Shown here: positions 22,976 through 64,000 of the stretch, piece after piece | Numbering within the stretch: position 1 is the first letter of the stretch | How the letters are laid out: each line of letters begins with the position of its first letter | NCBI GenBank assembly: GCA_044892525.1 | Contig: CM097885.1 | Location: 19,966,001 to 20,030,000, forward strand | Direction of reading: 5' to 3' | DNA length: 64,000 nucleotides | Source of the DNA: Schmidtea polychroa | Lineage: Eukaryota | Position numbers and translations under genes: made by a program | Notes under the pieces: model-generated | The model's database searches: none | Told to the model about the DNA's origin: nothing | Seen by the model: the letters and a program-made list of their open reading frames with translations, nothing else

Positions 22976-23043
<68 letters not shown>

Positions 23044-23204
23044 TCAACCAAATACTATACAACACATAAAAATAACTAGACACATAACAAAACATATAAA
23101 CATTAACTAAACACAACAAAATAACTAGACACATAACAAACATAAAAATTTACCAAACAAATAAAAAGAACAAAAGTATAGATATAAAATTTTATTTAAT
23201 AAAA

Positions 23205-29100: not shown

Positions 29101-29220
29101 TACTTAATTTTAAAATTTGGACCTTAATTTACTTTAATTTAATTTTTTAGACCTTAATTTACTTAATTGAAAATTTTAGACATCAATTTATTTAATTGAA
29201 AATTTTAGACCTTAATTTAC

Positions 29221-29621: not shown

Positions 29622-29659
29622 TTAAATCATTGCCATGTATGTTTAACTATTTATTCATT

Positions 29660-30060
29660 AATTTACTTAATTGAAAATTTTAGACCATAATTTCATGTAA
29701 AATTTTAGACCATAATTTACTTATTTGAAAATTTTAGACCTTAATTTGCTTAATTGAAAATTTTAGACCTTAATTTGCTTAATTGAAAATTTTAGACCTT
29801 AATTTACTTAATTGAAAATTTTAGTACTTAATTTGCTTATTTATCTTTAATTTACTGAAGTTTAAAAATATATACCATAATTTACTTTAATTTAAAATTT
29901 TAGACCATAATTTACTTAATTGAAAATTTTAGACCTTAATTACTTAATTGAAAATTTTAGACCTTAATTTACTTAATTGAAAATTTTAGACATCAATTTA
30001 TTTAATTGAAAATTTTAGACCTTAAATTACTTAATTGAAAATTTTAGACAATAATTTCAT
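29660..30060. repeat. ~31-bp tandem array (AATTTTAGACCTTAATTTACTTAATTGAA), also at 29105-29220
   Basis: About a dozen visible units. Confidence 0.85.
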
Positions 30061-30061
30061 G

Positions 30062-30441
30062 TAAAATTGTCATTGAAAAAATTTTCATTTCTCAGGCGCC
30101 GTTTAGTAGGTAGTTAGGGGCCCGCTGCAGCAATGACCCTCCCCCCAGGGGGGGGGGGGTTCTGCTGCAACTTTTTTTTTGCTGCAACTTCTTTTTTGCT
30201 GCAACTTTGATTACGCAATTGTTGCAACTCGTTTTCTTTTGTTGTTCAGTAAGCAACGCTAATTTTTTTTTCTAAGATTTTGAATACAAAAAAAAAGTTG
30301 CAACAATTGCGCAATCAAACGTTGCAGCAAAAAAAGATGCAGCAAAAAAAAGGCTTGCATTTGCATCGGGCTCCTACTAAAGTATCTACTAATCTACTAA
30401 AGGGCGCCTGAGAAATGAAAATTTTTTCAATGACAATTTTA
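30062..30441. repeat. small palindrome containing a Polinton terminus in both orientations
   Basis: TAAAATTGTCATTGAAAAAATTTTCATTTCTCAGGCGCC and its reverse complement bracket AGTAGGTAGTTAGGGG (30105) and CTACT repeats (30374-30398). Confidence 0.8.
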
Positions 30442-33400: not shown

Positions 33401-34156
33401 ATAGACGATAATTTAATTGCAGCATTATTGAATTCAGATTCTATATGTTTAGATAGACCAAGTTACATTGGTCAATCTGTACTTGATCTATCTAAACTTA
33501 GAATGTATGAATTACAATATAAGGATTTGGAATCATTTCGCAATGAGTTTAATTGTAAAATTAATATCGTTGCAGGTGATACAGACTCTTTTTTCCTCGA
33601 AGTAATTAACTGTAAACTTGAGGTTCTTTTACCTGCAATGATTCGAGATAATTTATTAGATACTTCCAATTACAATATTTGTCATTCCTTATATAGTAAG
33701 AACCTTGATTCTGTCATTGGAAAGTTCAAAGACGAGAATAAAGGTCTTAAATATAAGGAATGGGTTTTTCTTAGACCTAAATGTTATAGCTTGTTGGGTG
33801 ATGAGGAAACAAAAAAGGCTAAAGGTGTAACATTGGAAGGTAGTGACATAAAACATCAGTCATACCTGGATTGTTATAACACTAACCAGATTTTTTCGGT
33901 TCCTCAGACTAAAATAACAAGCAAAAATCATCAAATTTTTACAATTAAAAACACTAAAATAGCACTAACTAACAAAGATGACAAAAGGGTTTGGGTGGGG
34001 AAAAATACTAGTCTTGCATATGGGCATGTAAGATTAAGTCAATTAAATATTGGAGAAATTGTTGGAGAAGAAAATGATGAAAATGTTGGAGAAATTGTTG
34101 GAGAAGATTTTGGAGAAGATGATATTAATGACATTATTTTATCTGATGAAGAATGA
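30440..34156 (+). pseudogene. Polinton pPolB, right-arm copy, 5'-truncated and disrupted
   Basis: Inverted near-identical copy of 23205-26948; lacks the start; TAA at 32084-32086; ExoI YAD lost. Confidence 0.92.
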
Positions 34157-34317
34157 TTTTATTAAATAAAATTTTATATCTATACTTTTGTTCTTTTTAT
34201 TTGTTTGGTAAATTTTTATGTTTGTTATGTGTCTAGTTATTTTTATGTGTTTAGTTAATGTTTATATGTTTTGTTATGTGTCTAGTTATTTTTATGTGTT
34301 GTATAGTATTTGGTTGA

Positions 34318-34385
<68 letters not shown>

Positions 34386-35140
34386 AATTATTATTATTAT
34401 TAATCTATAAAAAAATAGCTTAAAAAAAAATTTACTTAAAAAATTATTCCATTAAAATTTCCATTGAAAATTATCTTTAACAATTAATCTATAAAAAATT
34501 TCATTAAAAAAAATTACTTAAAAAAATATTTCATAAAAATTTTCATTAAAAAATTTCAATTCTCAAACACCTACTATTATTCCAACTTTTTGTTAATAAA
34601 TTTTAAACTCTTACTTTAATTACTTTAATTTACTTATTTAAAAATTATAACTTTAATTTACTTATTTAACTTTAATTTACTTATTTAAAAATTATTACTT
34701 TAATTTACTTATTTAACTTTAATTCGATTTTTTAGAACCATAATTTACTTTAATTGAAAAATTTGGACCATTATTTACTTTAATTTAAAAATTTACCACG
34801 TTTTTTAGTGTATACCACCTTTTACTATTGAAAATCATAGGACCAAGGTGACCCCTCACTATAGTCAGAAAAAATACTGGCCTTTTTCTATAGGACCTAT
34901 CTAAATGTATTGAAAAAAAAAATTTTGTATTGAAAATCCCAGGACCTAGGAGACCCCCACACTATAGTGTGAAAACAAAAAATTTGGACTAAAAATCCCA
35001 GAATGCAAAAAAAATGAGTTGGGAACAATTGCGTAATCAAAAAACGTCGACGGCAAAATTATGCAATCAAAAGTTGCAACATTTTTTTACCCCCCCCCCC
35101 CCCCCCCCCTATTGTTGCGGGGAGCCACTAACTACCTACT

Positions 35141-37474: not shown

Positions 37475-37765
37475 TGTTAGAAGCTATAACATTTAATTCT
37501 TCTGTCATCAAAATAAATTACTAAGACTATTAAATCCAAAATTATATTTCATTAAATCTGATTATATAAACAAATATTCTTGGGACATTTTCTAAATTTT
37601 AATTTCAACCAAATATCAACATACCATCGCATTCATACTTGAATTTCAATTTTATTAAAAATTATTTTATTTTAAAATTTCAATTATCATTTCAATTTTA
37701 ATATCTTAAAATAATTTAAGTTTCAATTAAAATTTTTACAAATTTTAATCATGAACTAATTTAAT

Positions 37766-40700
37766 TTAGTATTTTAATTTTAACTCCTCACATCCCACTT
37801 TTTTAAAATGTTTGATCTTCTCAACATTTCTGACTACCATCTTCCCATTTTGATCTTTAAGTAAGTAGCTCCGTTCATGTATTTTCTTTATCACTTTGTA
37901 CGGCCCTTCCCACCTTGCATCGTCTTTATTTCGAATTTCTTGTTTGATCAAAACCACATCTTCCATTTCAAAATCTCTCGCAGTTTTGCTTATTTTTGGT
38001 TTTAGTGTTTTATCCTCTATTCTCTTTTCCATATCTTCTCTATTTATTTCTTTATTCGAGTACAATTTCATTCTGTCGATTTTCCTCCCAAATATAATCT
38101 CTGCTGAGCTTACTCCCGTTGTTTTTTGAACTTTTGCATTTAAAGTATATTCTATTTCTGGCACTATATCAGCCCAGTTTTTCCTTCCTCCTTCATTCAA
38201 TGACGCGTTAATATACTCTCTGATTGTTCTGAATTGTCTTTCAATAATACCATTCGTGTTATGGTGATATGGGCTTGAGAAAATTAATTCAATGCCAGCT
38301 GCCTTTGCTAGTTCTTTTATACTTCTTGCTTCAAAGTTCTTCCCACAATCTACATGAAGTTCTTTTGGAGCTCCAAACTTTAATATTCATTTATTTAATA
38401 ACGTCTCACTAATTGTTTTTTCGTCTTGCTTGTTTATGGCCGTTAATGAGATGTATTTACTATAGTGGTCAATGATTCCGCAAATATATTTCTTTTTGTT
38501 GAACGTTTCTTTCAATGGCCCACATATATCCATATATATCTTCTCGAATGGTTCTGTGCTCTTTATTGTTTGAGTTTCCTCCTTTGTCTTGGTTGTTATC
38601 GTTTTCATTTTCTGACATCTTTCGCAGTTCTCAATTACCTTTTTTACTTCCGTTGCTAAATTTTCCATGTCGCAGTTATTCTGGATATATTTCGTTACTT
38701 TCTGTGCACCTGCATGGCACAGCAATACGTGTACTTCTTTTATCATCCTCTGTCTATTATCTGACGGTATCCATATTTTACCTTGCTTAGTTAGTACCGT
38801 GTTGTTTTCCATTATGAACTTACAATCTTTATTTTCTAACTTATTCTTTATTTCTTGGACCTCCATATTGTCATTTTGCCACTTGTTATATCCGCCTTCT
38901 GCTGTTACTGTTAATATTCTGGTTTTAATTTTGCCGGTTTTTGGGTCTTCGTGTTCCATCATACACTGTACACATGTTCCGCATGTTTTCCTGGATAGCA
39001 TATCCGCGTTTGTATGGCTTGTTCCTTTCCTGTATTCCATTTTAATATCCAGGCTGCTTAAATAGTTGATTTATGCCTGGAATTGAGCAGTTATTGGTTT
39101 CTTCGTTGTTACCATAAACGTAATAGCTTTATGGTCCGTTCTCAGTACGAATCTCTTACCATATAAGTAATGGTTGAAATGTTTACAAAAATAGTATATT
39201 GCCAATAATTCTTTTCTGGTAATGCAGTATCCTTTTTCGTGGCTGCTCATCGCATGTGAACCATATGCAATGACATGTTCATGTCCTTTTTCATCCTTTT
39301 GCGAAAGAACTGCTCCAATAGTATCGAAGCTCGCGTCTGTGTCTAATATAAATTCTTTTCTGAAATCTGGAAATACCAATACTGGGGCGGTTATCAATGC
39401 TTCTTTCATTTCCCCGAAAGCCTTTTCACACATCTCTGTCCATCTTATTTTCTCATTGTTTTTTCCGCATATTCTTTCTAGTGCTCTTGCCTTCTTTGCA
39501 TAGTCTTTTATGAACCGTCGATAATAGTTACAGATACCCAGAAAGCTCCTCAGATTCTTTACACATTTTGGCTTTTGAAATGATTGTATTGCTTCTATCT
39601 TAGTATTATCTGTTTGTATGCCGTCTTTATTTATTATGTGTCCCAGAAACTTCACTTCTTTTCTAAATATTTGACATTTTTCGGGGTTCAATCTTAGTCC
39701 TGCTGTTGCGATCTTCCCTAGGACTTTTTCAAATATGTTATAATGGTCTTCTTCTGTCTTTGTGAATATTAGGATGCCGTCTAAATATACCATCACTCCA
39801 TCTTTCCACAAATCTTTCAATACTTTCGTCATTAATTCTTGAAATGTTCCTGGTGCCGCTGCAATACCGAACGGCATCCTGTTAAAACAGAACTGTCCTT
39901 CTTTTGTTGAGAATGCTGTTTTCTCTTGAGATTCTTTATCTAACTTCACTTGGTAATAAGCATTTCCCAAGTCGATTGAGCTAAAATATCTGGATCCGTG
40001 TAGGATGTCTAAAATTTCATCTACATTTGGCATTGGAAATGCTTGTCTTTCTGTTATCTTGTTTAATTGTCTGAAGTCTAGACAAAGCCTGATGTCTTTT
40101 TTCTCTTTCTTCCATACACAAACTAAAGGTGTGTTCCACGGTGAATTACACTTCCTAATTATTCCGTTGTTTTCTAGATTTTTTATTGCTTCCTCAATCT
40201 TGTCTTCCAAATTTATTGGCTGACGTCTCGGTTTAATCATTATTGGCTCTCCTTTCGTGATGATCTTATGTTTTATCAGATTGGTACACCCAATGTCCCA
40301 TTTATCTGCCATAAAAACATTCTTGTTTGCCTGAAATATTTCTAACAGTCTCTTATTTCCGGTAACCTTTAAAACGTCGATGGCATGACGTAATCTTTCT
40401 TCATCTGTTATAATCCGCCCAAATCTAGCTTCTATTTCGCAAATGAAATCACTACGTTTTTCATGTTCTCTATTATACATTTCAATTCTATACCAAATAA
40501 CCTTTGTAGTTCTACTCCTCCAATAATTTCTGGTATTAAATTCTTTAATATAATGAATGTTACATTTCTTTCAATACTGCCCATTTTAACATTGATGCTT
40601 ATTTTACCCATAGTTTCTAATCTACTGTTGTTTGCACATCTTAGCGATTCCCTTGTTTCTAATATTTCGATATTTTCTAATCGATCAATTACAGATTTAG

Positions 40701-41181
40701 CCATCACATTAATTCGCGCTCCTGTATCCAATAAACAATCTACTTTCCGCCCTTGGATATCCAGTGCTGTACTCGGTCTACCTTGCATTATATTATATGT
40801 TATTACTGGACTTTTTTGTTCTTCTACTGACAAAATATTCTGCTCTCTAGTATCTTCTACAATTTCATTAATACACACGTCTCCATTTTTCTTGAGGAAT
40901 TTGTAAATTTTCTCTATAGTTCTTTCCTCGTGTTTTACTAATTCATTTACTTTACACTCCTCTTTAAATTTTTTCTGAATTTCCTTATCATTCGACTTTT
41001 TGATTTCTACACTACTATTATTAATATCACGTTCAAAAACACTACAATCTTTATCAATCATACAATCATCATACATACTTAAATTACACATACCGTTAGC
41101 ATTCATTCTTTGGTTGAAATCAATATTACTTAGTAAATTGCTCCGATCAATGTCCCGTTTGACGGAGCGTGCTCGTTTGGG
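37766..41181 (-). pseudogene. pol: gypsy pol (protease, RT, RNase H, integrase), disrupted
   Basis: LLDTGA; RMPFG and YLDG (canonical YLDD altered); DTDAS, KELLA, TDH; HHCC; WEGPY; frameshift near 40480, stops at 39071-39073 and 38387-38389. Confidence 0.92.
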
Positions 41182-42215
41182 TCATTCTCCCTGTTATACT
41201 CGTCTGGCTGGCTTGACTGTTTTGTATTCATCATCTCATCATCAGACTCGATAGCTGCAATATCTTTTCTGTTATATTGTTGGTTTCCCCATTGTCTTTG
41301 ATGTACGTTCCTTGATTGATACATATCTTCCCTTTGTTGATAGGTATTTCTTTGAATTCTTCCTCCTGACATCTTCCTTTGGTCTCGATCTCTTCCTTGA
41401 TTTCGTCTTTCCATATTTGTGTAGCACTCTCTTTCTTTGTGTCCTCGTGCATTGCATCTATGACATTTGATTGTTGGGCATTCTCTTCGTATGTGACCTT
41501 CAACACCACATGCATAACATTGAAATCTTCTTTTTATATTACATTCTCTGCTACTGTGTCCCGGTTTTTGACACGTCCAGCATTCTATCACTTTAATTCT
41601 TGTCTCTGGTTTCCATTCGTTGATTTTTCTCTTCGTGGCTCCAACTTGTACTACATCTCTATAAGTTCTTCCTCCAGTTGTAGGTCGTATTGATCTCACC
41701 GTGTTTACTTGTTCAATAACCTTGTTAACTTTTTCTATCTTCTTTATAGTTTCTTTAATTTGTTCCGCCGTTTTGAGATCTTTCATTTCGATTTCTTTCC
41801 TGACTTCTTTATCTTTTACACAATGTGTCAATAAACATTTCTGAATTTCTTCTTCATTCCAAGTGTGTGAGGCCAATTTTTTAATCATTTTTGATATTTT
41901 CTCTATAAATATTTCCGCTGATTCGTTACCTTGCTCGTAGTTTAAAGCTTCTCTTAAGTCATCAATCAATGACGTTGGTCGATGAAAAGCTGCTCTTAAT
42001 TTCTGTTCAACGGTTTTACCTTCTGCGGTTTCATATTCTTCAATCAAAGTCCTGTCCAGAAGTGTAATAACTAGTACCATTTGGGTCTTCACTGGTGTCT
42101 TCGTTATTTCAAAGAACCTCTGACATTCTTTGATAAATAATTCGAGGTCATCTCCTCTGTGGAATTTTTCTGGAAGTAATCTTCCAATAAGCAGATCCGT
42201 TGGAATGGTCGCCAT
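41130..42215 (-). CDS. gag: gypsy Gag with three CCHC zinc knuckles
   Basis: CWTCQKPGHSSREC, CYACGVEGHIRREC, CHRCNARGHKEREC; start uncertain (ATG at 42215, or 42248 within the LTR). Confidence 0.88.
   Translation of the reverse strand: MATIPTDLLIGRLLPEKFHRGDDLELFIKECQRFFEITKTPVKTQMVLVITLLDRTLIEEYETAEGKTVEQKLRAAFHRPTSLIDDLREALNYEQGNESAEIFIEKISKMIKKLASHTWNEEEIQKCLLTHCVKDKEVRKEIEMKDLKTAEQIKETIKKIEKVNKVIEQVNTVRSIRPTTGGRTYRDVVQVGATKRKINEWKPETRIKVIECWTCQKPGHSSRECNIKRRFQCYACGVEGHIRRECPTIKCHRCNARGHKERECYTNMERRNQGRDRDQRKMSGGRIQRNTYQQREDMYQSRNVHQRQWGNQQYNRKDIAAIESDDEMMNTKQSSQPDEYNRENDPNEHAPSNGTLIGAIY
41140..41181 (-). promoter_or_regulatory. -1 ribosomal frameshift signal (gag-pol)
   Basis: Heptamer C CCA AAC (41181-41175) directly after the upstream stop of the -1 pol frame; 6-nt spacer; stem GCTCCGTCAA...TTGATCGGAGC (41168-41140). 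Confidence 0.8.
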
Positions 42216-42891
42216 GTTAGAAGCTATAACATTTAATTCTTCTGTCATCAAAATAAATTACTAAGACTATTAAATCCAAAATTATATTTCATTAAATCTG
42301 ATTATATAAACAAATATTCTTGGGACATTTTCTAAATTTTAATTTCAACCAAATATCAACATACCATCGCATTCATACTTGAATTTCAATTTTATTAAAG
42401 ATTATTTTATTTTAAAATTTCAATTATCATTTCAATTTTAATATCTTAAAATAATTTAAGTTTCAATTAAAATATTTACAAATTTTAATCATGAACTAAT
42501 TTTATTTTAGTATTTTAATTTTAACTCCTCACAGTGATATTTTAGTTTTACCGGTGTTTAAATAATCAATTAGGACTTTGATAAAAAAGAGAAATTGTAA
42601 TAAATAAATGACGGAAATCAAGTCTTTTAGAATTGAGTTGGATTTAACTGTTGACCATGTCAAAAAATGATAATATCAACGCAGTTTCAAAAGCAACAAA
42701 ATCCTTAATGAAATGTTTGCCAAAATCATGACAAGATATGCTTACACTAAACAACTGGCGACGCTCTGATATGGGTCACCCGATTTTCAAAAAAATATTT
42801 AATTAAAATTAAATTAAAATGAAACTATTATAATACTAACAACATAATTACAACTATATTTATATACATACAAACAAAATTAAATTGCCGT

Positions 42892-43467
42892 TTATTTAGG
42901 AGGACAGTATCTACTAATTAATCCCCAATAGATTGAAAGGATATTAGTATTTTCGTAATCCTGACGAGATAACCATAATCGAAAATCCAGATAATTGATT
43001 TTTTGTTCGAGAGACATCCCTCTCCGTTTCCGCATGTCCACCTTAATATTTCCCCACCAACCTTCAGCCTTGTTGGTATGCACACCAGTGACTGGATCTT
43101 TGAAAAATAGTTTGTGGTTAACCGACAAATGAATATAATCAAACCCATCAAGCATTTCAAGATTGTAATTTTCTGTCCAGTACGCTGGCCACCGATTCGA
43201 ATAAATAATTGAATTAGGTCTTATGAATTTTTTTATGATATCAATAAGGGTCTCCCTATTTCGTATCATGACAACTTGACCAAATCATTTTCCGCTGCCT
43301 CTTTCTGTACCTCCAAATAACCATATTTCTCGATACCACCTACCCCTGTAGTATTTGGGCTTTTTCGAAATCAACGTTTCATTGATTTCCACGATGATTC
43401 CTTCTCCACCGATTTTCCTTTCCTCTTCACTTAAATCACATAAACAGACGGAACAAACCTCATACAA
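42892..43467 (-). pseudogene. Merlin/ISXO2-like DDE transposase, decayed
   Basis: IGGEGIIVEINE, WLFGGTERGSGK, IRPNSIIYSN, VNHKLFFKDPVTGVHTNKAEGWW; internal stop and D>N changes at catalytic positions. Confidence 0.85.
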
Positions 43468-46404: not shown

Positions 46405-47751
46405 TTAGGAAATATTCTGAGCATAATGGACTAATACTAAATAGTATAACCAATAAAAACAATTATATAAAAGAAAACATGCTGGGAAGAGAAATCGGCT
46501 ATAACTATCAATATCAGAATCTTCAGTTGGTGTTGTCTTGATTGTTTTCTTGCCCTTGTGAGCATCCAGTGCGTGATTAATCAGTAAAGATTCAAGTTCC
46601 GAACAAAATTCCAACCTATTTCTGTCTAGAGTATTTTGTTCCTGGAGATGAAAGAATTGCTGTCTTTGACAAGCTGAGCACCATCTAGCTAATTCATGTC
46701 TCACAATTTCTCGGACGTCCTTTTCCCAACCGTTAGATTTTTTCTTTCTGGCAAGAACACTGGCAACTACATATTCCAATAGAGCTCCAATCACAAACAT
46801 AATACATGCGATTACCCATACGTCAATAGCTTTTATATAACTGACTCTTGGTAAAGTAGACGATATTCCGGTAGCTTGTGTCAGCATACCCAATAGCGTA
46901 ACAAGACCCAAAGTAACACGAGCAGGAACTGAATCGACATTGATCCAAAAGTTTAACCATGACACCATCACAATCAATATACTAGGAACAAATGTACTAA
47001 CTAAATAAGACCCCAATTGTCTTTGTAATAAGAATTTCGCTTTTAAACAAGTATATTTCCCAGTTGACGTACTCGAGTCATTTGTACAGTCAATAGTGCT
47101 GACTTGATGAGGAGAATTAAATTCAGATATTTGAAGACCAGTTGAGATTAAGATCGGATCCTCTTTTCTCCAAGTGAATTTTAATTCATCTAACGTGTAA
47201 CCATAACTGCCGATATCCATCAAGCATTCTTGACTGTCCATTGGAAAGGTTTGGAGATTCATTTCACAGGAAAATCTCATCGTTATTTTCTGACTGTAGA
47301 GAATTCTCCCATTAGGACGGAGTCGCATTAGATAATTTGGAAGAGTCATTTTATGGACATAGCCTTCTTTTCCATTCCGGAAAAACAGATCAGGCAACCA
47401 CAATATCTTTTTCAAAGACGGTGATACGATATTATTATTGAATGATCGAAATTCTTCTAAATTTTCCCAAGTCAATCTCGGATCTGTCCATTCTTGTCGG
47501 AGGTAGACGTCTGTTGAATATTCCATTTTTGTAACACTAACCGAATTGATAGCCAATACCTTCATATAAACCAATACATTTGTTTGATAAATTTCACTTG
47601 GACGTTCATCCTTTTTGTAACGTTTCTTATCGACTATCCTTTCCATAATTAAATCCCTCTGTTGAGCCATGGGGCTTTTTCTTCTTGGAATCGAGAGCAA
47701 TCGAAGAGAATTCAAAAATAAAATCAAGACAATGAAAAAGAACGAATTCAT
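46405..47751 (-). CDS. Cys-loop ligand-gated chloride channel subunit (lophotrochozoan GluCl-like), single exon, 448 aa from first ATG
   Basis: Signal-peptide-like N-terminus, WLPDLFFRNGK, CEMNLQTFPMDSQEC, SVPARVTLGLVTLL, four TM; paralog of 2720-4036. Confidence 0.94.
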   Translation of the reverse strand: MNSFFFIVLILFLNSLRLLSIPRRKSPMAQQRDLIMERIVDKKRYKKDERPSEIYQTNVLVYMKVLAINSVSVTKMEYSTDVYLRQEWTDPRLTWENLEEFRSFNNNIVSPSLKKILWLPDLFFRNGKEGYVHKMTLPNYLMRLRPNGRILYSQKITMRFSCEMNLQTFPMDSQECLMDIGSYGYTLDELKFTWRKEDPILISTGLQISEFNSPHQVSTIDCTNDSSTSTGKYTCLKAKFLLQRQLGSYLVSTFVPSILIVMVSWLNFWINVDSVPARVTLGLVTLLGMLTQATGISSTLPRVSYIKAIDVWVIACIMFVIGALLEYVVASVLARKKKSNGWEKDVREIVRHELARWCSACQRQQFFHLQEQNTLDRNRLEFCSELESLLINHALDAHKGKKTIKTTPTEDSDIDSYSRFLFPACFLLYNCFYWLYYLVLVHYAQNIS

Positions 47752-49700
47752 TGTTGATTTCAAAAAAATCCTCTAGGATTTCTGTAGGAATCAATCGGAA
47801 TAAAGAGATCACTTAAATAAAAATATAATTAGTATTAATTTCATCTCTTGAAAATTTTATTTGAAAAATTTAATAGTAGCACATACAGAATTTTCTCTGC
47901 CATTCTACACAGTGAAGCAGAAAGCTAATTATTTATTTTCCATCAAAAACAATCCTGACGTCAGAAAATTTTCCTGCCTAGGAAATCTGTCTCAATGCGA
48001 ATAAAAATCCAGAGAAATTCTCTACCAACTCACCAGAATGGGAGTTTGCAGAAACCAGCCCGTTTAGGCGCTGAGTAAAAGTACGATGAAAAAATTTGAA
48101 ACTTTCGTTGTGTCGAAGACTTAAAAACGGAAAAGGGGAAAAGGTAATTTCTTCAATTAAAAGTACACAAGAAATTGTATAGTGAAAACAAATTATTCAC
48201 GAGGCTTTATTTATTAATGACTGTTTAATAGTATTGAAAATAAAAAATTAAAATTTTTGTTGTAGCAAAATAAAATTTCGGGGGAAAAAATAATAAAAAA
48301 AATAAAATTTACACAATTTAAAGTAAATAGAAAAATATGAGTTGTATAAATTAATTAAAAATAATTTGAAAAATTAAAATTAATATCTAAATAAAAAATA
48401 TAAAAGTAATAAAACAATTTTTAATTCATGGAGATAAATAAAAAATCCAATTTATTTAATTTATTAAAATTATTATTAAAATTAAATTATTAAAATTATT
48501 TAATTTAATAATTTTAAAATTATTTATCAGATCAATCATCAAGACAAAACTCGATTGTAAAAAAAGGAACTCGCAATGCCAAATAAGAATATTATATAGA
48601 ATTAGAATGTAAAATCAAGTGTCTCCTTGAAGAAACCTCTGGGGAAAAAAGAAATTACCGGGAATCATCGATTGGGGAATACATTATAAAAGCACGGTGA
48701 ATTTATTTTATACTTGTCACTTTCGGAACGAAGGACACAAGTTTTAAATTTTGAATTGGTATATACTAGCCCGATTTGATATTTTAGGATTCTCTAACAT
48801 GACATAGATACTTAGGATTCATAATAAATTCCTCAAAAGTCTCTTATCATCATTAATAAAGGTGATTTTGAATATCCATTCTTTATGAACAAATCAAACA
48901 ATTTTTCAACACTTTTTAACATTACCCAAACTTTTATTTAATACATCATTGTTATTATTATAAGAAAGCGCCAATCAAACATTCTTTTCACGATATATCT
49001 CAACAGTTTTCAGTAGGTAGTTAGGGCACCTCGGACGCAATTACCTCTCCCGGGGGAGGGGTCTGTGGCAACTTTTGATTACGCAATTGCAGCAACTTAC
49101 TTTTTTTTGCTTTCTGGTATTTTCAGTACAAAAATTTTTTTTCAGACTATAGTGAGGAGGTCTCCATGGTTCTGGGATTTTCAATACAAAATGGCAGTCT
49201 TCAATAAAAAAGCATGGATTTTTCAGACTATAGTGAGGCTTTTTTTCAATATTGGGTTTTTCAATACAAAAAGCATGATAAATTAAGGTCTCAGGATATT
49301 TTCAATACAAAAAGGCGGTCTTCAATAAAAAAACATGGTAAATTTTAGAATTACAGTAAATAATGTGCTCAGATTTTTGAATTAAAGTTAATTAAGCGCC
49401 AAATTAGTAAAATAAGGGCTAAATTTTTAATTAAAAGTAAATTATGGTTCAAAAAATTAAATTAAAGTAAATTAAGGTCCAAATTTTAAAATTAAGTAAT
49501 CAATGGTCAATAATTTTAATTTAAAATTAAATAAGTAAATTAAAGTAATAATTTTTAAATAATTAAAGTAATTAAAGTAAGATTTTAAAATTAATTAACA
49601 AAAAGTTGGAATAATAGTCGGTGATTGAGAATTGAAATTTTTAAATGAAAATTTTGATGAAATAATTTTCAAAGTCAACTTTTAATGGAATAATAATAAT

Positions 49701-49976: not shown

Positions 49977-52900
49977 TTAATCTTCGTCTGATAAAATAAC
50001 GTCATCAATGTCAACTTCTTCATCATCTTCTCCAACATCTTCTCCAACAACTTCTATATCATTTAATTGACTTAATCTTACATGGCCATATGCAAAACTA
50101 CTATTTTCCCCACCCAAACCCTTTTGTCGTTCTGCGTTAGTTAGAGCTATTTTAGTATTTTTAATTGTATAAATTCGATGGTTTTTGCTAGTTATTTTTG
50201 TTTGAGAAATCGAAAAAATTTGATTAGTGTTATAACAATCCAGGTATGACTGATGTTTTATGTCACTACCTTTCAATGTTACACCTTTAGCCTTTTTTGT
50301 TTCCTCATCACCAACAAACTATAACACTTAGGTCTAAGAAAAACCCATTCCTTATATTTAAGACCTTTATTCTCGTCTTTGAACTTTCCAATGACAGAAT
50401 CAAGGTTCTTACTATATAAGGAATGACAATTATCGTAATTGGATGTGTATAATAAATTATCGCGGATCATTGCAGGTAAAAGAACCTCAAGTTTGCAGTT
50501 AATAACTTCCAGGAAAAAAGAGTCCGTATCACATGCAACGATATTAATTTTACATCTAAACTTATTGCGATATCTTTCTATATTTTTATATTGTAATTCA
50601 TACATTCTAAGTTTAGATAGATCAAGTACAGACTATCCAATGTAACTTGGTCTATCTAAACATAAAGAATCTGGATTTAACAAAGCGGCAATTAAATTAT
50701 TGTCGATTTTAATGGATTTTTTAAACGAAGGTTTTGAAGAATATTTAACTAATTTACCGTCGGTAGTAAAAAGACGAAGATTCATTCTTCTCTTTAAATT
50801 TTCTACAGTTTTACCATATAAACTGTTATTTAATAATTTGTAATAATTTTTGTCTAAACTATTTGTACTTTTTGCTCTTAATTCGGTATTAGTGTCTATA
50901 TATTTTTTAAAATTTGGAGATTGTTTAAATCTTACTAATACTTACTAATACTTACTAATACTTACTAAATCTATTTACGCGCGTAACTTTAACACCAAGT
51001 GTCAAGTATAATTTTAATAATCTTCAATGAATCACATAATTAGATTTTGGAAGATGAGTTAATAACAATTTTTCAACCTTTGACCCAACAGGTTTCATTT
51101 TTTCAGCAGCTACAGGGAAATCATCCAACTTATCATGAAGCTCAGAAGGAATTACAAGATCAACTTCAACAGTGTATCCATAAGACAAATATTCAAGATT
51201 TAAATTCCTACGTTCGTCCATTATTAAATCAAATCCATCAAGAACCCAACTAAATCCGCCACAAGGTAATGGTTGACTTAAAGCCCAACCGTAAAGATTA
51301 TTAATATCTATATAAAGTAACTCGGTGTTTTCATCGGTTTTTACATAATGTTTATTTACAAAAGTTAGACCTTCTCTTAATCCACCCTCATAAAGGCTAA
51401 ACATTTCGTTTTCAGTTATCAGTTTAATCGGTTCATCTAAAGACATTAATGCAGAAGACCAAGACATACCAGGAATTCCGAAGTAATTCAATGGTTCTAA
51501 CCTATTATTAGCAATAGATTTCAAACGAAATTGTTGGAAGAAATCGGCCAAAAGAAAACAATCAAGTTTTAAATATATCATCATGTAGTCTAATAAAGTC
51601 ACGCAATTAGTTTCAACCCAAATCTCCTGAGCTTTTTCATACTCAAGTTCCGTGACACCTTCCCAGATCGGTGGTAATTCATAAGTAGTGTTTGGAGAAT
51701 ATCTAAAGATGTAGCGAAATTGTATGGAAAGATTCCTTTTTCATAAACAATAGTGCCAGTAAAAACAGAATTAGTTAAAGGTAAAGTATTCAAAGTTTTG
51801 ACTGCTTTAGCTAAAGAATCATTAACAAATTGATAAGAATCAATGAATCTTAAGCTAATTTTTCCTAAATGCGCAATCAAAAAAATAAATTTTTCAGTAG
51901 TGATAGGGATACAGCCTTAAGTCCAATTCTTAAATTTATTTAAACCATATTTAAGTATATGGTGCATATTGTATCCCTTCAAGTTGTGAAATACGATAGG
52001 CAAAATTTTATTAATTTTCCTATTTATGTTGCATGTGCTACAAGCAGCACCCAAGTATTTCCCAGTAAAATGATCGTGATCTCTAACAGGATCGACGATA
52101 CATTTCATGCAAAGGTAACATTTATCAGCATTATTAAATTGTTGTTGTTCAATATTAGTTAATTTCACTATAGGTTTCCTAGCCATTTTATAATAAAAAG
52201 GAAGAACTTTGTTTAATGCTATATCCTCTATAGCACTTAAAAACTTTCGACGCAATCGAAACCTATGAACTGTTGATAAGATTTAGATCCGTCGAAGTTA
52301 TTAATAAGTAAAAGACCAGCAGATATTGGTATGTGACGTTGAAAGTGAATATTGTCGGAAGGTAAAATAGCCTCAAAATCGGCATAAACTACAAATGTTT
52401 TCGACCAGTCAGTAAACTGTAATAATTTATTTTGAGGGAACGTGTAAAGAGTCGTTCCTAACTGATTTCCTTTACACAATACTTCATGTTTGTCCAGTGC
52501 GTGTTTATATCTAAACCCGTTCAAACACCCTGGCACTATAATGAGCGTATTTGTGTAGGACAACTAGTGTTTATGTGGCAATTCATTAACCTATTTAAGT
52601 TGCTTATAGCTATGTTTCCTTTATTTAATAATAATAAATTAATTATTTTTCATGTAAAACTTTGGAACGATGTATAATATCCAAATATGGATGTTTTAAT
52701 ACATAATTTTCGGTTAATTGTCTAGTATTGTCATAAGTAAAAACATTAATTATTAAACCAGGATTTTTGGCTTCAAATTTCCTAACATAAATTAATTTCA
52801 TGGGTAAATCTGACGAGTCGTATATGAGGTCAGATAAATTATAACTTGATGTCCTATTTCTGAATTGTCTAACAACCTCATCATATTTTAAAATAGCTAA

Positions 52901-53874
52901 AATGCTATATAAAAACACGAATCATCAGTGTTTTTTATATTTATTAAACACTTATTATTTTTTAGATAAGTTGTTTCTAAATAACTCCTACCACTTAACC
53001 TACATAACCTACTTATTTTAGTTATTGTGAAATGAATTTCGGTTATATTTTTTATTATCCAACTACTACCTAACTGTGTTATGTTTGTTATTTTTTCGTT
53101 TAATTCTCTAATGCCTTCGTCAAAAAATGACGCAGTTAATGGTTTCGTGTTATTAGAGATATTATTAACTTTTATTTCCCCGTCTTTTTCAAATTCGATT
53201 GTTATTCCGAATTGAATTTTAACGGAGCATAATTCGTAAATAATATCTCTTAATTTGATTATTAACGTTTCTGGAAATATTATTTCCTTAATATTTAAGT
53301 CGCTTGTATTTAAACTTAATATTTTGTGGGTACCTCTAAAATCACGTTGTACTATTGGAACATTTCCACCTATTTGTATATTATTATTTAATCCATCCCA
53401 AGAATCAAGGGAAATGCTGTCTAATCCGTCTGGGATTCAACAACCAATCCTTCCCAAGAATCAAGGGAAATGTTGTCTAATCCGTCATTGAATTTTTAAC
53501 AACCACTCCATCCCAAGAATCAAGGTAAATGCTATCTAATCCGCCTAGGGATTCAACAAAAGGCAATCCGACCTGGGATTCAACATCGAATCCGTCCTGG
53601 GATTCAACTACGTCTAATTTAAATTTTTTATTTGTGATATTTATTTCTACGGTTGAAGGTCTTTCAAAAACAGTGTCTTTTTTAAAATTAAACCTTTCTA
53701 AATGATTTTTATGTTTATTGTAAACCGTAATATATGTTACGGGGTCACTAGTTTTACATATGGGGCATATAAAATAAGTTTTATTATAATGTTTTTTAAT
53801 ATAATAATTTTCCATTATAGAATGGCAATTATTATTATGTTCTTTTGCTGAACAATAATTCGGGTAAAGTATAC
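49977..53874 (-). pseudogene. Polinton pPolB, third copy, many frameshifts
   Basis: Colinear with 23205-27102; retains VYADFE (ExoI) and GKYLGAAC; 10-bp CTTACTAATA expansion at ~50931-50968. Confidence 0.9.
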
Positions 53875-54599
53875 CTATAAAATAAAAATTTCAATAAAAA
53901 TTGACTTAAAAATTTAATAAAAAATATTATAATTTAAATGAAATTTTTAATAATTTTCCTAAATATTGTATGCAACCAATCAGATTTTAATATTCGATAT
54001 ATATGAAAAATTTAATTAACTAAATTTAAAAAATTGATTAATATAAATAGTATCCTATTAGAAGAAAATAGTACATCTGTTATAGGTATGGTATGTAAAC
54101 CTCCTATTCAGTTCCTTCAATATAATATGTACTATTTGAAATATTCTATTACTTATTCATTCAAGGTATTTTTTATTGATTGATTTAAATTATTAATTTT
54201 TGTAGGAACCAGTTAATTTAAAAACCTATCAATTCAATATTCAAATTGGAGATATTGGGGAAGAAGATAGGAAAAATCTTGGAGAAATTCTCAGATTAAT
54301 TAATAAAGAAATGTATTTTAATGAAAAATTTACATTTACCAACTGTGAAAAAGGTTGTAAAATAGATGAAGGTAAAAAGTCAAAGTTCGAATACTTATTC
54401 AGGGAGTCAAGATAAATGGAGCTATAATTAAACCAATTGGGAAAATTACAAATGTTGTTGAATAAATTTATGTATTTAAGTGCTCTTTTTATTGTTATTT
54501 AAATATTTTAAAGTTATCTTTAAAATTGTTATTTTCGCATACATTATTTAGTAAAATTATTAAATTTAAAATTCAATTTCAATTAAAAAAATTTTTTTT

Positions 54600-55050
54600 T
54601 GCGAGGGATTTCCCCTTATCATTACTAAATATCATCTAAAAATATGAGTGATTTCCTCTTATCATCAAAATAAATTTGCGAGAGATTTCCCCTTATCATT
54701 ACTAAATATCATTAAAAAATACGAGGGATTTCCTCTTATCATTACTAAATATCATCATGTAAAAATGTGATGGATTTCATCTTATCATTAATATATATAT
54801 CATTAAAAAAATATGAAATTTCTATTTATCATTACTAAATATCATTAAAAAAATACGAGGGATTTCCTCTTATCATTAATATATCATTAAAAAATACTAA
54901 AGAGATTTCATCTTATCATTACTAAATATCATCTAAAAATGTGATGAATTTCATTTTATCATTAATATATCATTAAAAGATATGAGAGATTTCTCTTATC
55001 ATTACTAAATATCATTAAAAAAAATACGAATGATTTCCTCTTATCATCAA
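54600..55050. repeat. ~40-bp minisatellite (GAGGGATTTCCTCTTATCATTACTAAATATCATTAAAAAATA)
   Basis: About 11 degenerate units. Confidence 0.85.
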
Positions 55051-55559
55051 AAAAACTGCTTAATATAAATTTATAAAAAATATATTGATAAAAATTGAAT
55101 AAAATTTAAATAAAAAATTATTAATTTAAAAAATACTTACAGTTGTTTTGATTTAATTTTTTCATAATGGGCATTTTTTTCGTTAATTTTTTGACATTAT
55201 TTTTGGGCATAAACATTTTCTTTATCTAAAGAAAATATTTTAATTAAAATAATAATTAAAAAAAAATCAAAAATCTTACAAGCTTTGGTATTAGTAAATT
55301 ATGACAAAATGAAAAAAACTAATCATTTATATACTATTGATCCTTCTTAATAATTACGTAATAATTAAAGGATTATGTTTCTTATTTAGATGATTGTTGT
55401 CATTAAAGATAGTTTCATGTGCTATTTTAATCCTTAAAGATAGAGGATTATCATCATTACATAATTCAATTAACAACAAATTATTTACTCTAATATTACA
55501 ATATTCTTTCATTAACATCATTTTAAATACAAAAAACAATACATTTTCATTATAAAAAT

Positions 55560-55938
55560 TTATTTCATAGACTTTAACCAAGCCAAACAATGTTGTCCAC
55601 ATGTTTTTGTCATTGGAATTTGGTAACGTATTCGATTGTATTCAATTGGCATGGACATTGATTGTAGTTTATTGATTATTATAGGCGGATATTAGAATCC
55701 CATTAGATCAAATGCATATATTTTGTCTGGTTTTACATGTATTGCAAGTCAATGTTCACCATTCAGATTAGCAGATTGAGTATTTACAATTATTGCTTTG
55801 TTGACATCTAAATAAGGTATTTTGTCTAATGGGAAAACACCTGAAAATTCTTTTCCTAGTAATTTTCTTCCAATAATTTGTATCTGAATAGAACTAAATT
55901 AATAAAAATTAAATTATTTAAATTATTGCTTACTTCAT
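55560..55938 (-). pseudogene. Polinton adenain-like cysteine protease, with a 40-nt intron (55933-55894)
   Basis: Spliced MNSIQIQ..FSGVFPLDKIP..IIVNTQ..GEH*LA..AFD..YQIPMTKTCGQHCL; contains stops and a frameshift. Confidence 0.82.
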
Positions 55939-55969
55939 ATTTGATTAATTGATTTTCTATATTTGGTTT

Positions 55970-56140
55970 ATATTATACCAAAACAGTACGAGTAGATGTA
56001 ATTTGAATTTCCTTTTCAAAAACTTACAGAAACAGCTTCAGTAAGTGAAGATAGAAATTTAATATTTAATCGTAAATTTCCACTTGGTGCTAACTGACTT
56101 TGATGAAGATCAAAATCCGGTGCCAATACAAATGCTTTTT
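55970..56140 (-). pseudogene. Polinton major capsid protein C-terminal fragment
   Basis: FVLAPD....SGNLRLNIKF..L.EAV pattern; position between minor capsid and protease. Confidence 0.6.
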
Positions 56141-56149
56141 CGGTAAACT

Positions 56150-56647
56150 CAACATCGTAATAATATTGTATAGTTAATCGAATTGTATCAAACTTTATTT
56201 TTCTATTATTTGGAGGAATAGTGATTTGATTCAAGTTTTCTTTAAAATTTATTTCTTTTTCTGAAAATCCTAATTTTTGTGCTTCTTTAATACTATCGAA
56301 TTCTACTTTAAAAGGAAATTATTTTCAATTAATGTTCAAAGTATTTCCATCAATATATATTAAATAAAATGGAGAGTCGTGACTGATTGTATATTCATTT
56401 TTTCTTGGTTAAAGTAAAAGTATTCATAACTTGTATGTAATACACTTTTACTGTATTTAACATTTGAATTATTGTAAAAATGAAAATAATTATACACAAA
56501 TGTAAAGTCCATGAGAGCTACTTACCATTCACCATCCAAGTAAATAGGATTTTGAAGTTCGACATTAAATTTGGTAGATTCATTATTTGGATGAGTCTGA
56601 GGACAACTATTTGAAGGCAAATTCACATAAAAATCTTTTTTAATCAT
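56150..56647 (-). pseudogene. Polinton minor capsid (penton)-like gene, N-terminal part
   Basis: FYVNLPSNSCPQTHPNNESTKFNVELQNPIYLDGEW*VALMDF. Confidence 0.65.
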
Positions 56648-57145
56648 TTATTTTACGAAAACGTAATGTCAAGTGCGTTTTTGTATCTTTACTAAATTTT
56701 ATTAATTTTCCATTATCATCACATATATTGATTTCAATGTTGTTTATAGAAGAATTAGAAATTGGTAGATACATTGGATTCTTCATTTCTAATTGCACAA
56801 TTTCCTCTTGTTCGTATTTCTTTATCCAAATAGATTTCAATAACGGAACTCTTACATATCCAATTGTTGATGATGATTAAAAAATTTTGGAATTTTTGAA
56901 CCAATAATTTCTTTCTCTGTAAATGTTTGTTTCTTTAATCCCAATGTTTTTGTTAAATTTTTATCAAAGGTTATTGATGAAATGTTATCAGCAAGACTTA
57001 TTTTAACCAATTCATTATTTTGTATTTTAAAATCTTTAAAGGGAATAACTTGGAGTTCTTGTTCATAGAATTTACTAGTGATTGGTTTGTTTTCATGATC
57101 AACTATCACATACATGACAGGATTCTGCTTTGTATCAATTTTCAA
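56640..57145 (-). pseudogene. Polinton minor capsid (penton)-like gene, C-terminal part
   Basis: NPMYLPISNSSINNIEINICDDNGKLIKF..THLTLRFRK. Confidence 0.65.
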
Positions 57146-58300
57146 AATTTGATATACTTCATCACTCCAATTATTATCAAAGGTTTTGATGAATGGTGAA
57201 GAATTGATTTTACTAATTCTTACATGATCACCAACCTTGTATTTCGGTTTATTGATTTTTTCTATGTTTGTTTTTTAGTAAAATCAACAGGTATTTGTCT
57301 TTTTAATCCTCTATGCGGCGAATGATTGTAAATGAAAATAATTTTTGGCAAAACATTTATCCAAGTTTTATTACCTTGATATACAAAATATTTTTTCAAT
57401 CTTTCTCTTTAAGTTCGATTAAATCGTTCTACATGAGCAGCATTGAACTGAGAAAATACGGAGTAGTGGTTTATTCCTTTGATAACCTCTTTAACTTTGC
57501 TGTTATAAAATTCTTTACCTAAATAAAATATTTAAAAATTAATTAATTAAATTTAATTACCTAAATCGGTTTGTAAATTAATAGGTTTGCCATCTGCAAA
57601 CATTTTTTTTATCGCATCAGCCATTTCATTTGCAGATTTAGTTTTTGTAGGAACAGCACGAGCATATCTATTAAAAACATCAATACAAGTCAGAATATAT
57701 GTGTACCCCTTGTTAATTTTTGAATAAGGTATCATTTCCATCAAATCCATTTGCCATACATCATTGTTTCCAATTGTTTTGTATGGTCTTGTTGGAAATC
57801 GTTTCAACATTGGTTTATTTAAACCAGGGGTGCCCACTAATGTTTCTAGGAGAGCTACATTCACATCCAAAATGTGTATGCGATCTACTTTTTTAATACT
57901 TACATAATATTTAACAAAATTAAATTAAACTAAATAACATTTTGGAAATGGTGAAATCAAAATTAAAAAATGTTATTTATTATTACCATAGAAATGGAAC
58001 ACAGAACATGAAAATTGGCAAAAAATTTAAGCATAAAACAGAAATTTTATATAAAATCTAAGTTTATATAAAAAATATTTTTTTATGAAGATCTACTAAA
58101 AAATCCTTCGCGATCTACCGGTAGATCGCGATCGACCTTATGGGCACCCCTGATTTAAACTATATGCTAATTGATTAGATAACCATTTCTGAGTTTCTTT
58201 CTTTGAATTATTCACTCGTTTTGTTAATTTTTATCTACACCACCAAAACCATTTGAATCTTTTGGGTTTGTCCATATTGTTTTGAACTTTTTTTCTTTTA
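57146..58300 (-). pseudogene. Polinton retroviral-type integrase, with a 42-nt intron and a hAT MITE insertion
   Basis: NPKDSNGFGG..WLSNQLAYSLNKP, WQMDLMEM, YILTCIDVF, LQTDL|GKEFYN, VERFNRT-like, YKVGDHVRIS. Confidence 0.88.
57825..58152. mobile_element. non-autonomous hAT element inserted in the Polinton integrase
   Basis: TIR CAGGGGTGCCCA / TGGGCACCCCTG; perfect 8-bp TSD ATTTAAAC (57817-57824, 58153-58160). Confidence 0.9.
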
Positions 58301-58889: not shown

Positions 58890-59461
58890 AACTTTTCAGT
58901 TTTGTTTATAAATCGTAACACCGTTTATATAAAAAATATCAGTTCTAATACGCATATCATTTGGACATTGTTGTGTAAAATCAAAAAATAAATATCCATG
59001 AGGAATTTTTGTCGCATCTTGGAATGAATCTATCAAATATTTTCTATTATTTGAATAAGCTTGTGGACATTTAAATTACGAGTTCTATGACTTCCACCTT
59101 GATGAAAAAGATTTTGTGTTATGAAAATAACTGTAACTCCACAATGTCTACTGATTTTTGTAAATAAATTATTAAAATCCTTTTCTTTATTTGCTTCCTG
59201 GTACAAATCGTCGATAATAATAACATCACCTTGGCGTAATCTAGATGACCAATTTTTATCAAATCCTTTAATTATTGTCATTTTTAATTTACAGAAACCG
59301 CTTTGAGTCAATCCATACTCTTCATCTGCACCTCGATACCAATATGTTTTATTAAATTTTGATTTAAACATTTTTGATTGTAAAAAATTACATACAAAAA
59401 AGGTTTTTCCGCTTCCACTAGGTTCTACAATTTGATATACCGCGTCATTTCTTAAGTCCAT
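58890..59461 (-). pseudogene. Polinton A32/FtsK-like packaging ATPase, decayed
   Basis: Walker A-like EPSGSGKT, Walker B IIIDDL, FTKISRH..IFITQNLF, PHGYLFFDF..RIRTDIF. Confidence 0.88.
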
Positions 59462-59714
59462 TTTAATTTAAATATTTAATTTATTTTTTTATAATTAGAA
59501 TAATTAGAATGATTAGCAACATTAATTATAGAGGAAGATGTGTAGTAAATGGAATAAAGTTCCCATCAGGAAAACCTCAACATGTTGTGGACAGAAGTGG
59601 AAAATATCCAATTTTATTCTTCAAGAGCGGGAAATGTAGGAGAAATGTAGGAGAAATGTAGGCACTTGCCCCCTCCCCTGAATTTTCCAAACCATTCTAT
59701 TTTTCGATTAATTT

Positions 59715-62049: not shown

Positions 62050-63140
62050 ACGCTATATTTTTTCAGATTTAAATTATAGTGAGGAGTTCTCTTTGGACCA
62101 TTAGAATTTCTGTATACAAAATCGGACTGTCTCTCAAAAAGTCAAAGTTTTTTAAGGGATTCAGATTTTTGAAGAATTTATGGTCAAATATTTACATGAA
62201 TCGATGACAAAGTTAAATTTTGGTAATAATTTCAAATTAAGTAAATTAAGGCAATATTTTAAAAATCAGTAATAGATTTTTAATAAAGTAATATTTTTAA
62301 ATTAAAGCAAATTAATGTAATACTTCAAAATAAGTAAATTAAAATAATAATTTAAAATTTATTGTCAGATATTTTCAAAAAACCAATGGCCCCTGCGAAT
62401 TTTTATGAAGGAAAGAAATTTAAATGCAAATTTTTATGAATTAATTTTCAAAATGATATTTTTAAAGCAAAGTTTTATGAAAAAATTTTTTTTGAATAAT
62501 AATAATAATAATAGTATTAATTCAACATACAGATACCAAGTACTTACAATTAGATACTAACAAACACATGAAAAATAACAATTAAAGACAAAATAAAGAT
62601 AAAAAGTTTATTCAATAAAAGTATTCATCATCATCTGATAGCAAGACGTTGTCTATGTCTAAAAGATCGTTTTCTCTGACATCCTTTTCCAAGTTTTCAT
62701 TAATATTATTTAACCTTATATTTCCATATGCACAACTATTACTTTTACCCACCGAAACCTTTTTATCATCCTTATTAGTTAACGGTATTTAAAAATTTTT
62801 GAAACTATTGTACCAATACGAAATTGTGGTATAGAAAAAATCGCATTTTTATTGAAACAATCCTTATAAGATTTAAGGTTCAGCTTAGTATCTTAAAAAA
62901 TCCCTTTAGCTTTTATATAATTTGATTTACCTAACAATTTATAAATCTTAAGAATACTCACTCATCATATCTTTCACCCATACTCTCATCTTTAAATTTG
63001 CCTGTAACAAAATCAAGTTTTTTAGAATAAAGAGGGTGATCAGTAGGATAATTAGAAGTGTCCAAAAGTTCATCTTTAACCATTTCTGACAAAAGTTTTC
63101 TAATTTCTAATTAGATATTTCTAAAAAGATAGTCTGATAT
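62050..63140 (-). mobile_element. old Polinton remnant: subterminal sequence plus pPolB C-terminus
   Basis: TATAGTGAGGAG TIR-like motif, AAT run, then LLDTSNYPTDHPLYSKKLDFVTGKFKDE and LTNKDDK..VGKSNSCAYG at ~62620-63100. Confidence 0.75.
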
Positions 63141-63248
63141 ACCATGAACTTCATATCTTCTACTAAACATCTCTATAATAAATGATTCTTATCATTTTTT
63201 GATATTATTCTAATTAAAAACAAAAAGTAATAAAATAATTAATTTAAA

Positions 63249-63860
63249 ATGGAATTAAGATATGATGCACTATATCAAATTTTAGAACCCAATGAAAGTG
63301 GAAAAACGTTATTCATTACGTTATTTTTTACGACCAAACATGTTTAAATCAAATTCAATAAAATTTATTGGCATATAGGTGCAGATGAATAGCACGATTA
63401 AACTCAAAGCAGTTTCTGTAAATTATAAATGACAATAATTAAATGATTTTATAAAAATTGGTCATCTAGATTACGTCAAGGTGATGTTATTATTATTGAT
63501 GATTTATATCAGGAAGCAAATAAAGAAAAATATTTTAATAATTTATTTACAAGAATTAGTAGACATTGTGCAGTTAGTTATTTTCATAACGAATCCTTTT
63601 CATCAAGCAAAACTCATAAAACTCCTAATTTAAATGTACAATATTTGATTATTTTCAAAAATCCTCGAGATTGAACAATTATTGATTTTCTTGTAAGACA
63701 AGCTTATCCTAATAATAGAAATTTTTTAATAGAATCATTCCAAGATGCAACAAAGTTTGATATGGATATTTATTCTTCCACTTTACACAACAATGTCCTG
63801 ATGATATGCCTATTAGAACAGATATTTTTAATGCAAATGATGTTAATGCTTAATTAAAAT
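63249..63860 (+). pseudogene. Polinton packaging ATPase, second copy, decayed
   Basis: MELRYDALYQILEPNESGKT, GDVIIIDDLYQEANKEK, IFKNPRD; inverted homolog of 58890-59461. Confidence 0.85.
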
Positions 63861-64000
63861 CAGCAAATGGTAAAGTCATTTAAAAAAGTAATTGTTAAAA
63901 ACTATCGTTCCAATTGTTTCCAAAAAAGTTATTAAGAAAACAAAACGCAGTATGATAAGTAAGAAACCAACTAAGAAATGGATGAAATTATCAACATTCT

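Follow-up and report, generated by a model that had tools for sequence, protein, structure and literature searches.

Do the core genes of a Maverick/Polinton element in the genome of Schmidtea polychroa contain introns that the host spliceosome has to remove? The question arises from a 64,000-nt stretch of contig CM097885.1 (the window), in which two short segments, of 42 nt and 40 nt, break the integrase and protease frames of such an element. Vertebrate Maverick/Polinton core genes are reported as intronless, and 'intact' copies defined by intronless open reading frames (ORFs), in the accessible parts of Barreat and Katzourakis (PMC8097293). Nematode Maverick core genes are called 'intronless', with introns only in cargo genes, in the accessible parts of Widen et al. 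(10.1101/2022.07.12.499685). An earlier note on this DNA had started from the premise that Polinton genes are usually uninterrupted ORFs, and both sources, as far as their available text goes, agree with it (PMC8097293, 10.1101/2022.07.12.499685). Here we argue, from comparison of DNA copies across the genome and in metagenomes, that the 42-nt and 40-nt segments are very probably real GT–AG introns removed by the host spliceosome.

The element and its copy in the window

The element is a Maverick/Polinton. Its integrase matches PF00665, its packaging ATPase PF04665 and its protease PF00770, the latter two over the cut-off, and the polymerase profile PF03175 matches part of the polymerase of a sister copy at E 3e-27 and the window copy at E 6e-06. 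The whole 1398-aa polymerase frame alone matched only Endonuclease_7, a PDB sequence search with the polymerase gave 0 matches, and in integrase exon 2 of a sister copy rve_3 and Chromo appear as below-cut-off matches only. On moderate evidence, the element probably encodes a double-jelly-roll major capsid protein: the ESM Atlas score is 0.98 to clusters with PF21738 in 22–30% of members, at an Atlas recognition of 2172, which is below 2300, and with no Pfam or PHROG match. Two related 338–341-aa frames between the integrase and the major capsid protein match no family and are candidates, labelled by position only, for the minor capsid protein.

Terminal inverted repeats were found by BLAST in 5 of 6 copies, and the three copies with both ends found all have identical 6-bp flanks and span 14.5–17.7 kb; the definition of Maverick/Polinton elements in the accessible parts of PMC12747079 and PMC5718144 comprises terminal inverted repeats, a 6-bp target duplication and 15–20 kb. 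As far as the available descriptions of vertebrate and nematode Mavericks go, the element has in common with them pPolB, RVE integrase, A32-like ATPase, C5 protease and capsid genes, as well as terminal inverted repeats, the 6-bp target duplication and a length of about 15–18 kb; it differs in that its integrase, protease and polymerase are split.

The window copy is not an intact element: it is decayed, with stops in integrase exon 2 and in protease exon 2 (two in the latter), and with an insertion of about 330 nt in integrase exon 1, beyond which the 5′ part of that exon lies from about position 58150 upward. The 3′ end of the integrase and most of the capsid region are deleted. A first look at the 781-Mb AT-rich assembly gave 1,101 candidates for the integrase stretch and 775 for the protease stretch, and some copies with open ATPase, capsid and polymerase frames still carry both the integrase and the protease segments. 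The features of the window copy are collected in Table 1.

Table 1. Features of the Maverick/Polinton copy, in positions of the window
Feature	Positions	Strand	Remarks
Right terminal inverted repeat	49012..49600	.	Ends in family's AGTAGG terminus at 49012
Main exon, protein-primed family B polymerase	49977..53874	-	PF03175; fragmented in window copy
Putative long polymerase intron	53875..55140	-	1266 nt, GTAAGT...TATAG; tandem repeats and antisense gene inside
Antisense accessory-gene intron (candidate)	54166..54205	+	40-nt GT-AG, phase 0
Putative polymerase leader exon	55141..55225	-	ATG at 55216, 76 coding nt, ends phase 1
Candidate polymerase-leader 5′-UTR intron	55226..55279	-	54 nt; 44-46 nt in other copies
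TATA-like motif before putative polymerase leader	55326..55333	-	Function inferred
Protease exon 2 (adenovirus-type cysteine protease)	55560..55893	-	PF00770 E 1.4e-05 in sister copy
Protease intron (candidate)	55894..55933	-	40 nt, GTAAG...TTTAG, phase 2
Protease exon 1 coding part (start codon and two bases)	55934..55938	-	ATG AA in sequence
Integrase exon 2	57042..57518	-	Stops; deletion-shortened in window copy
Integrase intron (candidate)	57519..57560	-	42 nt, GT-AG, phase 1, in-frame stops, inside catalytic TD-x-G-x-EF
Integrase exon 1, 3′ part (rve core)	57561..57824	-	PF00665 E 5e-09; alignment blocks
Packaging ATPase (A32-like)	59033..59467	-	Cut short in window copy
TBP-like gene remnant	59467..59661	+	Interrupted near 59644

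Three further genes accompany the core set. A TBP-like protein of 158 aa (PF00352, E 8e-16, in sister copy L081:619–1092) also occurs in other families and among metagenome relatives; a 360-aa RING-finger gene (L081:7631–8710) follows the protease in antisense orientation in some family-A copies and is missing from others, the window copy among them; and a 108-aa basic protein before the integrase (L081:1968–2291) gives a match to PF05829, adenovirus core protein X/mu, at E 2e-06.

Two segments at fixed nucleotides

The earlier note had described a 40-nt segment at 55933–55894 after ATG AA in the protease, and a 42-nt, stop-bearing segment at 57560–57519 splitting the integrase motif. Both are borne out: the former runs GTAAG...AG in phase 2, and the latter, GT...AG in phase 1, is 95% AT and interrupts the Gly codon of TD-x-G-x-EF; translated with X in a sister copy, it is a 14-codon insert with three in-frame TAA. 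Within the window, GTAAG...AG at 40–42-nt spacing occurs at about 0.01% of positions, and GT with AG exactly 40–42 nt later at about 0.2%. The empty integrase site, seen in a sister family (family B), reads AG/GT, so a duplicating insertion there gives GT...AG ends by default, and the 0.2% background is therefore a weak control for the integrase. GT–AG ends are thus of little weight by themselves; what carries the argument is conservation and selection, and several lines of evidence bear on it.

First, sister copies keep both segments with GT–AG ends; the earlier note had named their loss, or the loss of these ends, as what would refute its reading. The ends are kept at the integrase in 66 of 67 distinct family-A sites (all 67 begin GT) and at the protease in 55 of 58 distinct sites (55 begin GT and all 58 end AG). 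The integrase intron is nearly invariant within family A (52 of 67 identical), so that conservation within the family says little.

Second, the positions are kept in diverged families. The protease intron of family B stands at the same place, with 37 nt and an unrelated interior and upstream DNA. A gapped genome-wide pattern for the layout ATG-xx/GTAAG...AG gave 2,394 matches and its reversed control 0, a count that measures breadth and not conservation rate because the pattern demands splice ends. All 30 of the pattern loci inspected have a 36–41-nt protease intron, with many different interiors and always ahead of a protease exon, and their exon 2 is mostly 60–70% identical to that of family A; intronless family-A protease starts in the genome numbered 0. 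Of the five metagenome loci with a protease, four have the intron layout (37, 39, 47 and 47 nt) and represent three lineages at 52–57% identity. The most distant metagenome protease (42%) has a start without an intron, and the homologue P0125 begins MNSVQI with no gap.

For the integrase, the exact junctions in the genome comprise 257 with the segment start and 12 intronless ones, which belong to family B at about 73% nucleotide identity. Seventeen of 20 further loci across protease types were scorable at the integrase; 16 have inserts that begin GT at the same base, of which 13 end AG as scored and 1 more on inspection. Intronless integrase families coexist with these in the same genome, and loci L300 and L302 have an intronless integrase. 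Three unrelated interiors, those of families A, A2 and E, occupy one nucleotide: the A2 insert is 43 nt long and shifts the frame, and the family-E insert (loci among L289–L306) is almost pure (TAT)n of 42–156 nt. In all 11 copies its length is divisible by 3 and it contains no stop, so that splicing is not forced there by sequence alone. The integrase donors GTAAT, GTAAA and GTATT are weaker than GTAAG, and the branch-point motif is indistinguishable from a 90–95% AT background. As expected of U2-type introns, position and phase are kept while interior and length drift.

Beyond the genome, the integrase site is continuous. Integrase homologues at E ≤ 1e-20 number 3,828; of the 120 best, which are ORF-called proteins and biased toward intronless ones, 119 are continuous at the site and 1 lacks the region, and those 119 have 3 residues between D and EF, making the segment an exact 14-codon gap. 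All 27 scorable metagenome loci, of 37 found by tblastn, are continuous as well. No database protein was near-identical and continuous across the site, the best full-length one being 68% identical, and an IMG/VR scan with integrase exon 1 gave 9 pattern matches and 0 relatives. The protease intron appears old and clade-wide, and the integrase intron appears confined to families of the S. polychroa genome. In a tree of integrase exon 2 only (57 rows, those with an open frame below 150 aa dropped), the intron label needs two changes, and no well-supported branch stands against one origin. An 11-nt direct repeat flanks the insert in most family-A copies and was not retained by the other two families; a recent family-A gain by 11-nt target duplication is weakened as an origin by the introns of other families, which are without that repeat.

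Third, coding sequence downstream of the segments bears the mark of selection. Every scored family-A copy has stops in the integrase insert. Variants in integrase exon 2 common to at least 3 of 66 family-A copies comprise 21 synonymous and 10 non-synonymous ones (pN/pS 0.11), as against a pN/pS of 0.72 for singletons (Fisher p 8e-06 for shared against singleton); in protease exon 2, pN/pS is 0.13 for shared variants and 1.0 for singletons. By these ratios the shared variants downstream of the integrase stops are under purifying selection, which is the strongest evidence for the integrase intron.

Fourth, all 30 loci read Met-X-stop at the protease start when left unspliced. The unspliced frame closes just upstream in 26 of these, and in 28 of them no Met precedes the catalytic His in exon 2.

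Fifth, the introns of host chaperonin genes, as inferred from DNA at 10 loci, are 42–49 nt long and 81–91% AT (in a sample of 13 rows that includes one 72-nt and one mis-sized candidate). Judged by size and composition, the mini-introns of the element are of the same kind.

For RNA, contigs of four runs (X1, X2, X3 and X6), none recorded as RNA, were checked on a 10-kb copy, and no splice joint at the candidate introns was among the matches listed (15 of the 39 rows on joints, 12 of the 39 on gaps). Run X1 has the best cover (29 of 30 bins), looks like DNA and has variants in common with X6, a probable DNA run. In run X3, which has poly(A) ends, the integrase intron is uncovered and the protease intron nearly so; 13 nt of the accessory-gene intron occur in one X3 contig, which is hence unspliced or antisense. 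As RNA cover is lacking at both sites, the absent joints are no evidence either way. Poly(T) loose ends in X3 lie inside a capsid-region gene (L101:5398–5612) and may reflect polyadenylated element transcripts or internal priming. In a planarian, knock-down of smedwi-2 is reported to raise Polintons (PMC8532177).

From these comparisons we infer that the segments are removed from RNA. The idea of host-type mini-introns and a need for the spliceosome, put forward when the locus was first read, gains its support from diverged families that keep the positions with other interiors.

Alternative explanations and related systems

A different reading takes the segments as disabling insertions, in carrier families that are non-autonomous and moved by the enzymes of intronless sister families. 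Intronless integrase families are indeed present (the 12 junctions, L300 and L302) and could supply integrase in trans; however, all of the in-genome families examined that could be scored have the protease insert, even where the integrase is intronless, so that no helper family was found, and it is kept in relatives at 52–57% identity. A duplication at AG/GT would give GT...AG automatically, and most family-A copies have the 11-nt repeat, but three unrelated interiors at one integrase nucleotide speak against such an event. The window copy is dead and no RNA joint was seen; against this, purifying selection acts downstream of the stops, as the shared variants indicate. We consider disabling insertion very unlikely.

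It is extremely improbable, in our judgement, that the proteins are made without splicing, the protease from a non-AUG or internal start and the integrase by read-through, as two pieces or, in the microsatellite family, with a poly-Ile loop. In all 11 copies of that family the insert keeps the frame and has no stop, as this would require, but a run of 14–52 Ile residues beside the catalytic Asp seems implausible, and family A has three in-frame TAA and family A2 a frame-shifting 43-nt insert. Some database proteases are annotated from a nearby or internal Met; nevertheless, protein synthesis without splicing gives no reason for the layout ATG-xx/GTAAG...AG/T to persist while flanks and interiors diverge.

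Introns of groups I and II are far larger than 36–50 nt. That the segments, 36–50 nt long and so far below group I/II size, are recent invaders of the introner or self-splicing kind deserves hardly any credence, even with introners inside dinoflagellate Maverick-Polinton-like elements (accessible parts of PMC11957031) and a direct repeat at the family-A integrase site, since interiors differ by site and by family within the element and the repeat is absent from the other two families.

Spliceosomal introns thus remain our preferred reading, and they have counterparts elsewhere. The dinoflagellate elements, as described in the available parts of PMC11957031, likewise have spliceosomal-type introns in integrated elements; those introns are repeats that move, most of them inserted once the element had integrated, whereas the ones described here are position-conserved, have a non-repetitive interior and appear inherited across diverged families. 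Mirusviruses, according to the accessible text of PMC12768974, likewise have GT–AG spliceosomal introns in DNA-virus core genes, with genes inside introns, and there the introns are read as a tie to the nucleus. They differ in being Duplodnaviria with giant genomes, protist hosts and introns of about 80 nt, many with homing endonucleases, of which none was seen in the S. polychroa element. Ginger1 DNA transposons (PMC2836005, in its accessible parts) likewise have enzyme genes related to Gypsy integrase with introns (1–4, mostly GT–AG); they are, however, single-gene cut-and-paste transposons without polymerase or capsid. Cryptophyte PLVs contain group I introns (PMC12220804). We found no literature report of spliceosomal introns in Polinton core genes, although subscription journals, Repbase or supplements may hold one; the available portions of 10.1101/2023.08.22.554363, PMC8502044, PMC11296320, 10.64898/2026.10.13.758929, PMC6431247, PMC12747079 and PMC5718144 describe none in core genes.

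Surveys that require uninterrupted core ORFs for 'intact' copies, as the accessible parts of PMC8097293 indicate, would score intron-bearing lineages as fossils. The earlier note had warned that ORF-based screens would miscall such copies, and likely cases of this are the database entries P0122, P0123 and P0127, which begin at an internal Met or run on through an intron. The proteases and polymerases of intron-bearing lineages would get wrong annotated starts, and in this one genome the copies concerned number some thousands. That core genes have introns also argues for nuclear expression by host polymerase II of the never-observed 'polintoviruses', and the families with and without the integrase intron make a rare, datable case in which a virus-like element gained an intron, or gained and lost one, at a single proto-splice site.

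A putative polymerase leader and splicing as a possible switch

The earlier note listed two mini-introns and missed three further candidates in the window copy. A conserved phase-1 acceptor (53875/53874) marks the opening of the polymerase frame, and the genome has 1,098 matches to it with one mismatch allowed. The putative leader before it has the order TATA-like motif, candidate UTR intron of 44–54 nt and short ATG exon ending T/GTAAGT. This exon is open and ends in phase 1 in all 13 copies parsed, with 11 different lengths from 52 to 265 nt. Thirty acceptors were examined; the unparsed ones differ in layout or motif or have too short a flank, and the decayed copies L141 and L171 among them have altered splice sites or leaders. 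Three leader introns are seen in family B too (1 of 2 parsed loci frame-consistent) and in a palindromic polymerase-only derivative (17 of 21 loci frame-consistent, many of these being the two arms of a single element), and metagenome locus L208 has similar polymerase-leader intron candidates. These layouts suggest that the start codon of the polymerase lies in a separate, spliced leader exon.

Nested in the putative long polymerase intron, at about 54040–54415, is the antisense accessory gene, whose phase-0 intron measures 39–47 nt in 32 family-A sites (31 of 32 inserts with GT–AG ends) and 38–50 nt in other families; an ESM Atlas search with its exon 2 gave nothing at ≥0.9. Accessory genes between protease and polymerase and beside the TBP-like gene hold many more 40–55-nt GT–AG candidates in L287–L306, and the ATPase and capsid frames of these loci showed no break.

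On the reading that we prefer, host RNA polymerase II would transcribe the element in the nucleus, and the major spliceosome would remove the introns, a step needed for integrase, protease and probably DNA polymerase: splicing would join the catalytic motif of the integrase and bring the start codon to the main exons of the protease and polymerase. The introns may have originated as AT-rich fillers gained at proto-splice sites. The protease intron would have been gained early, before the families of this genome split from their freshwater-metagenome relatives, and the integrase intron later, once or twice, at the AG/GT site, after which its interior would have drifted freely and, in one family, turned into a (TAT)n microsatellite of 42–156 nt.

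A more speculative proposal, which we hold only as a tentative possibility and think rather less likely to be right than wrong, is that a whole Polinton clade, environmental contigs included, keeps its protease and polymerase start codons behind introns, with splicing as the switch. As unspliced protease RNA would yield a two-residue peptide (30 of 30 loci), the enzymes of maturation and replication would under such a switch need host splicing. If so, the long polymerase intron would be a safe berth for antisense cargo genes, the size of the mini-introns would tie the element to hosts that splice 36–45-nt introns, and an integrating relative of adenoviruses would have an adenovirus-like spliced expression programme. 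In the adenovirus E2B polymerase and terminal-protein mRNAs, the protein-primed polymerase has its start codon in a small exon farther upstream. Adenoviruses, which do not integrate, mainly splice long leaders, and their protease frame is not known to be split by a mini-intron. The two systems have a similar polymerase leader layout and a related protease, and the likeness may be one of layout only.

The window itself has an example of the palindromic polymerase-only derivative at 22500–35000, with two inverted copies whose arms are 98–99% complementary and point out to terminal repeats; many divergent polymerase pairs 3–6 kb apart occur genome-wide. A further Polinton fragment, an ATPase at 63146–63947 with 81% nucleotide identity and in opposite orientation, adjoins a polymerase C-terminal remnant at 62600–63110. 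The window also contains an LTR retrotransposon at 37475–42507 (99% identical 293-nt repeats, gag-like and RT frames), followed by an ISXO2-like transposase fragment at 42892–43284, and a single-frame neurotransmitter-gated ion-channel gene of 455 aa at 46405–47772, with a 72% similar copy near 3050–3760.
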